Positions 558-574 of a stretch of DNA of 64,000 nt are shown here, piece by piece. Made by a program: the position numbers and the translations under genes. The DNA is from Escherichia phage OLB145. The DNA lies in sequence record MH992123.1. The stretch is one strand, 5' to 3'. Below the pieces are notes generated by a model, which worked only from the letters and a program-made list of their open reading frames with translations, was not told the DNA's origin and searched no databases. The first letter of the stretch is position 1, and each line of letters opens with the position of its first letter.

Positions 558-574
558 AAGAAGCTCCGCTTCTT
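558..574 (+). promoter_or_regulatory. Hairpin AAGAAGC-TCC-GCTTCTT, candidate N4-type virion-RNAP early promoter (P2-like)
   Basis: Template strand reads CCAAAAGAAGCGGAGCTTC, which matches the N4 P2 promoter hairpin as I recall it; flanks ATAAG and TTTTGG are shared with the 4548 site. Confidence 0.5.

Follow-up and report, generated by a model that had tools for sequence, protein, structure and literature searches.

The analysed window, a whole stretch of 64,000 nucleotides from Escherichia phage OLB145, corresponds to the leftmost 64 kb of the genome of an Enquatrovirus N4 strain. Its first 3 kb were compared with related phages and showed 99.6% identity to vB_EcoP_3HA13 and 98.2% identity to N4, and base 1 of the window aligns with base 1 of the vB_EcoP_3HA13 and N4 (EF056009/NC_008720) records. 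The part from 39 to 64 kb, which spans the virion RNA polymerase (vRNAP) and structural genes, is collinear with both phages. Judged from the sequence of the left end and of 39-64 kb, the phage is N4 at the species level. At the left terminus (positions 1-60), the window begins with GGGGCTACACCCC and carries a run of ten C at 32-41, both of which probably belong to the terminal repeat and packaging end of N4.

The locus under study lies between gp1 and gp2. Its features, together with the gene of the polymerase that is proposed to act on it, are as follows:

494-517, plus strand: terminator-like hairpin with a T-run, after gp1 and ~40 nt upstream of P2
558-574, minus strand: P2 promoter hairpin, template 5'-AAGAAGC GGA GCTTCTT-3' with a 7-bp stem; match to a published oligonucleotide, and stem covariation
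565-567, minus strand: P2 loop, template -12A/-11G/-10G, corresponding to T565/C566/C567 on the plus strand
577, plus strand: predicted P2 transcription start, +1 G (template C), with the RNA beginning GGAUGAAGUAAUG
587-1072, plus strand: gp2 as annotated in N4, with an in-frame internal ATG at 686 and GGAGAG at 674-679
1080-1105, plus strand: terminator-like hairpin with a T-run after gp2, closing the short P2-proximal unit
34544-45064, minus strand: virion RNA polymerase gene (~3500 aa), with the polymerase domain encoded at 38738-42055

On the plus strand, positions 558-574 read AAGAAGCTCCGCTTCTT, a perfect 7-bp stem (AAGAAGC/GCTTCTT) around the 3-nt loop TCC. The first-pass annotation had proposed a template-strand hairpin with a purine-centred 3-nt loop at this site, and this was confirmed: the template loop is 5'-GGA-3', and the template 19-mer given there, CCAAAAGAAGCGGAGCTTC, equals the reverse complement of positions 560-578 exactly. 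This 19-mer is unique within the window even with three mismatches allowed (0.02 expected) and is identical to the core of the published N4 P2 hairpin oligonucleotide (PMC13492108). In a 2026 cryo-EM study of full-length vRNAP, the ‘hairpin P2 promoter’ oligonucleotide 5'-...CAGCCAAAAGAAGCGGAGCTTCAAC-3' was used for the initiation complex (PMC13492108). The hairpin and its flanks equal those of N4 (EF056009) over the aligned region (519-719 of N4), except for T557 in place of G, which sits at -20 and thus outside the -17 to +1 promoter. In the N4 record, the hairpin is found at 557-573, between gp1 (154-480) and gp2 (586-1071). The P2 of coliphage N4 and that of the window accordingly share their sequence (bar -20), genomic position, downstream gene gp2 and a polymerase encoded in cis; apart from the one substitution, the strain alone differs (closest vB_EcoP_3HA13).

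N4 promoters are conserved from -17 to +1 and consist of a GC-rich heptamer centred at -11 with flanking inverted repeats; vRNAP specifically reads -11A/G, -10G, -8G and +1C, -10G and -12A form a sheared pair, and the four A's before the start serve as a ruler that sets +1 eight nucleotides from -8 (PMC4496689). When compared with this scheme (PMC4496689), every published promoter determinant was present at P2 with the correct spacing: -11A/G, -10G, -8G, +1C, the G:C closing pair, the 3-nt loop and the four-A ruler. In this numbering, template -9C and -8G correspond to G568 and C569 of the plus strand, the loop-closing pair -9C:-13G lies within the template core GCGGAGC, the AAAA ruler at -4 to -1 corresponds to T573-T576, and +1C to G577. 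The predicted start was placed at G577 because of the fixed spacing from -8G and the four-A ruler. It lies 11 nt from the loop centre and 3 nt beyond the 7-bp stem, a distance that had been given imprecisely as about 10 nt downstream of the hairpin. The proposed match to the N4 P2 early promoter and to the vRNAP type of architecture was upheld by the exact oligonucleotide match, the full set of determinants and the species-level identity with N4. On this sequence evidence, 558-574 is almost certainly the early promoter P2 of a coliphage N4 strain.

The P2 core GCGGAGC belongs to the GCGNAGC ‘mini-hairpin’ class, which is noted for its stability (Tm 73 C for N=G), and in a review of this motif, the N4 promoter is given as one instance (PMC13037366). 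As single-stranded DNA, both strands fold to the P2 hairpin, with nearest-neighbour energies of -5.8 kcal/mol for the template vs -5.4 kcal/mol for the non-template strand. The folding signal obtained in this way was modest (-5.8 kcal/mol, z = -2.6). Nearest-neighbour parameters do not model the sheared G:A mini-hairpin, and the folding energies were therefore not used as evidence for strand specificity.

Terminator-like hairpins with T-runs at 494-513 and 1080-1101 flank the P2-gp2 unit, and the P2 hairpin could itself be read as an intrinsic (factor-independent) terminator of the P1/gp1 transcript, with T's after the stem (GCTTCTTTTGG). In line with this reading, the plus-strand stem-loop is followed by TTTT, and the RNA would fold as a 7-bp hairpin. 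However, the scan flagged no terminator at the P2 hairpin, but a much stronger GC-rich hairpin with a T-run at 494-513, just 45 nt upstream and right after the gp1 stop. The P2 stem is furthermore AT-rich, half of the T-run falls within it, and a terminator would not need the conserved non-palindromic TCC loop or the GG at a fixed distance. We therefore consider a terminator at this position very unlikely.

To return to the promoter P2, its conservation was followed in an alignment (A1) of 14 Enquatrovirinae, which included N4-like phages, Kaypoctavirus KP8, Moovirus, several Gamaleyavirus species and Klebsiella phages, and was anchored on the conserved downstream sequence. Both closing pairs and the GG at +1/+2 (577-578) were invariant in 14/14 phages, and the loop was TCC in 13/14. 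The five innermost stem pairs were standard pairs in all 14, with the stem variants GAAGC/GCTTC, GACGC/GCGTC and GCTGC/GCAGC. For the P2 stem alone, 95.9% of cells were paired and three pairs were changed on both sides (14 cells). When the stem was taken together with a helix predicted at the 5' end of the RNA (see below), 97% of cells were paired, vs 31-49% with the partners slid by 1-3 columns. These covariation statistics derive from the homology-anchored alignment A1 only; a cross-locus collection of promoter hairpins was left out, as it had been selected for pairing. Loss of the hairpin in relatives had been named as an observation that would count against the promoter; it was instead found to be kept, with compensatory stem changes, in these 14 Enquatrovirinae.

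Symmetric substitutions in a palindrome would also be expected at a dimer-binding site, and the covariation alone is compatible with the 17-bp inverted repeat being a double-stranded operator for a dimeric DNA-binding protein, with no extruded hairpin. Such an operator is nevertheless extremely improbable here. Its asymmetric 3-nt centre (TCC/GGA) is nearly invariant, and the polymerase-hairpin contacts of the solved structures agree with the conserved strand-specific features (-8G, and +1C at its fixed distance). No candidate repressor is known, and published work on N4, whose sequence is identical here, has already shown that vRNAP initiates from the hairpin of the single-stranded template.

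The one exception to the P2 loop was found in Klebsiella phage vB_Kpl_K57alpha1.2 (L013:350-560, A1 columns 99-115), in which it is TCT (template AGA, that is -10A). Conservation is thus not absolute, because this -10A breaks the -10G rule; the TCT loop might reflect natural variation, a promoter of reduced strength or an error in sequencing. A canonical hairpin is also present upstream at this locus (centre 122). In KP8, the depositors annotated the homologous hairpins as ‘early promoter’, and the annotated positions agree with the hairpins found here. Kaypoctavirus-type relatives (KP8, L003, at 133-154 and 396-417; L016; L018) have one more canonical hairpin promoter, which precedes a short additional ORF (216 nt) located upstream of gp2. 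Accordingly, the number and placement of early promoters vary among genera. On IMG/VR contigs, too, a similar hairpin and a G start often lie ahead of more distant gp2 homologues (41-51% protein identity), as exemplified by ACCTGC-TCC-GCAGGT in L024. Upstream of two other gp2-type genes, hairpins with a 4-nt loop were observed: CCCTGC-TTAC-GCAGGG in L026 (loop 538-541), and GCAGC-TCGC-GCTGC followed by TTTTGG in L028 (loop 500-503). These may represent divergent vRNAP promoter architectures.

The window was scanned for the full promoter motif, which required a stem of 5 bp or more, the core GC-TYC-GC in the RNA-like strand and a G 11 nt past the loop centre. Three occurrences were found in the 64 kb, all on the plus strand and in the left 4.6 kb, with loop centres at 97, 566 and 4555:

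91-103, minus strand: P1 promoter hairpin, template GTTGC GAA GCAAC; plus strand GTTGC-TTC-GCAAC, 5-bp stem, centre 97, predicted +1 G108
centre 566: P2 as found by the scan, plus-strand stem AAGAAGC-TCC-GCTTCTT, predicted +1 G577
4547-4563, minus strand: P3 promoter hairpin, template AAGCTGC GGA GCAGCTT; plus strand AAGCTGC-TCC-GCAGCTT, 7-bp stem, centre 4555, predicted +1 G4566

In shuffled sequences, the motif occurred on average 0.08 times without and 0.017 times with the +1 G requirement, and 0/300 shuffles reached three. That P2 is a chance hairpin without function would draw on the abundance of bare hairpins (17 perfect ones with a 3-nt loop and a stem of 7 bp or more, vs 4.9 ± 2.3 in dinucleotide shuffles) and on the heptamer GCTYCGC alone not being enriched (4 in the window vs 4.3 expected). 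Such a chance origin has a negligible probability: the full motif was found three times against ~0.02-0.08 expected, each time between genes, within the early region and on one strand, and the hairpin is kept across genera through compensatory changes and is identical to an experimentally characterised promoter.

The count (three) and the placement of the hairpin motifs reproduce the published N4 early promoters. P1 and P3 have the same architecture as P2, with the GC-G(A/G)A-GC core, -8G, +1C and a GG start, and all are located on one strand in the left 4.6 kb. P1 differs from P2 in its 5-bp stem, its GAA loop (-11A) and its spacer (TTAT vs TTTT), whereas P3 has a 7-bp stem with other outer stem bases and shares the TTTT spacer. 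P3 lies just upstream of the RNAPII subunit gene (4604-5413), for which a PHROG ‘N4-like RNA polymerase’ match was obtained over 4604-5410. Pfam searches gave no match for gp1, gp2 or this RNAPII subunit. Two other candidates were rejected: the fourth GCTYCGC match (51892-51898, minus strand) as a promoter, since its stem is just 3 bp and it is located at a gene end, and an imperfect repeat at ~1143-1160 as P3, since it folds weakly (z = -1.5) and is without the GC-TYC-GC core.

Directly after the P1 hairpin, a perfect 8-bp palindrome (TATGGACA-TGT-TGTCCATA) was observed at 106-122, overlapping the predicted +1 (G108). The P1 RNA would begin with a 5-bp hairpin, GGACA-UGU-UGUCC, and a second extrudable hairpin thus follows P1. 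Sigma-70-like promoter matches were scarce in positions 1-6000 (7 vs 18.8 ± 3.9 in shuffles), a depletion which fits a region that is not intended for the host RNA polymerase.

The gene at 34544-45064, the sole very large ORF in the window, encodes the cognate polymerase. Its polymerase domain aligns end to end with the mini-vRNAP crystal and full-length cryo-EM chains (3q0a, 3c2p, 9pnr), with a handful of substitutions. In the published complexes, K114, R119, W129, D901 and R904 contact -10G, -11G and -9C/-10G/-8G, the loop bases -11G and -10G being contacted by W129/R119 and K114 (PMC4496689). All five residues (mini-vRNAP numbering) are kept in the vRNAP of the window.

For the identical N4 sequence, supercoil- and Mg-dependent extrusion, activation by EcoSSB and rifampicin-resistant initiation at +1 have been established (PMC4496689). 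For N4 P2, start sites have furthermore been mapped both in vitro and in vivo, a dependence on gyrase and SSB has been demonstrated, and complexes have been solved by crystallography and cryo-EM (PMC4496689, PMC13492108). The identity of the sequence was observed directly in the window, and the biochemistry of its P2 is taken from this N4 literature. In the resulting model, host DNA gyrase would supercoil the phage DNA after injection, and the inverted repeat would extrude as a cruciform. Escherichia coli SSB would then melt the non-template hairpin and spare the unusually stable GCGGAGC mini-hairpin of the template, to which the injected vRNAP would bind via -11G and -10G of the loop and -8G of the stem. 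The hairpin-bound polymerase would undergo plug and motif-B rearrangements. With the four template A's as a ruler, it would initiate with GTP opposite template +1C (G577) and proceed to the right into gp2, which encodes the ssDNA-binding cofactor of RNAPII, the middle polymerase.

The P2 promoter, its polymerase, the mechanism and the structures are all published, and the locus is the textbook N4 P2 in a new isolate. Studies of this early promoter reportedly include those of Haynes & Rothman-Denes (1985), Glucksmann (1992), Dai & Rothman-Denes (1998) and Gleghorn (2008). The hairpin promoters of N4 are the classic example of promoter recognition through DNA secondary structure and not through duplex sequence. 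P2 illustrates that such elements can be recognised from raw sequence, as the first-pass annotation did, and adds no new biology. The comparative data are a modest supplement, comprising the stem covariation across Enquatrovirinae genera, the near-invariant loop and the invariant GG start.

Other Schitoviridae (KP8, G7C-like phages, Pseudomonas phage LUZ7) likewise have early promoters with a template hairpin, of at least 4-5 bp in the stem and 3 nt in the loop, and with a start at G; the stem sequences differ (GACGC/GCGTC and GGCTGC/GCAGCC in the Enquatrovirinae examined). In LUZ7, early promoters were mapped by ONT-cappable-seq, and the starts are 13-14 nt from the hairpin centre, vs 11 nt here (PMC9163698). 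Promoters of T7-type single-subunit RNA polymerases are served by a homologous enzyme, and a specificity loop, an intercalating hairpin and an upstream recognition element are common to both. In contrast, T7 promoters are double-stranded linear sequence (-17 to +6), and the N4 promoter is an extruded single-stranded hairpin which requires supercoiling and host SSB.

The gene downstream of P2, gp2, encodes an ssDNA-binding cofactor of N4 RNAPII (PMC4496689, PMC13492108). An ORF supported by a ribosome-binding site had been noted 110 nt downstream of the hairpin, and the ATG at 686 with GGAGAG at 674-679 is indeed present, 109 nt past the predicted start site and 112 nt past the stem. The frame is, however, already open from the annotated gp2 start, ATG 587, which lies 10 nt after the predicted P2 start, in the same frame as ATG 686-688 and 33 codons upstream of it. 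Position 587 is thus a probable start of the gene, either in addition to 686 or in its place. Annotators are divided between a long gp2 of ~158-164 aa starting at ATG 587 (N4, 3HA13, KP8, G7C and PhAPEC7) and a short one of ~127 aa (Moo19, Bp4 and EC1-UPM).

The 587 frame is free of stops in all 14 phages, and its indels are frame-preserving; the conserved peptide encoded by it, MHP[IL][LI].E[IL]L..[CF]LG..TD, is hydrophobic, while the two other frames over the extension are full of stops. Because of this pattern, the N-terminal extension of gp2 is probably translated, from an mRNA with a leader of just 10 nt. Across the 19 nt ATCTGGAGAGTACAAAATG, the nucleotide sequences of the same phages show just one substitution, found in Moo19, and the GGAGAG ahead of ATG 686 is nearly invariant. 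Both the PHROG family profile and the distant gp2 homologues begin at Met34. This near-invariance and the Met34 starts suggest an additional internal start. gp2 has been reported as membrane-associated. Tentatively, and with some doubt, we propose that the P2 transcript may yield two gp2 isoforms: a long one with a conserved hydrophobic N-terminal segment, which might explain the membrane association, and a short soluble core like that of the distant homologues.

The first 18 nt of the predicted P2 transcript (577-594) form a 5' hairpin, GGAUG-N8-CAUCC (-6.4 kcal/mol), with AUG 587 at the edge of its loop. The arms are invariant in 13/14 phages, and the loop length varies by indels. Because the arms do not vary, they provide no covariation evidence for or against the helix. 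This hairpin might stabilise the 5' end of the mRNA or modulate translation of the long gp2.
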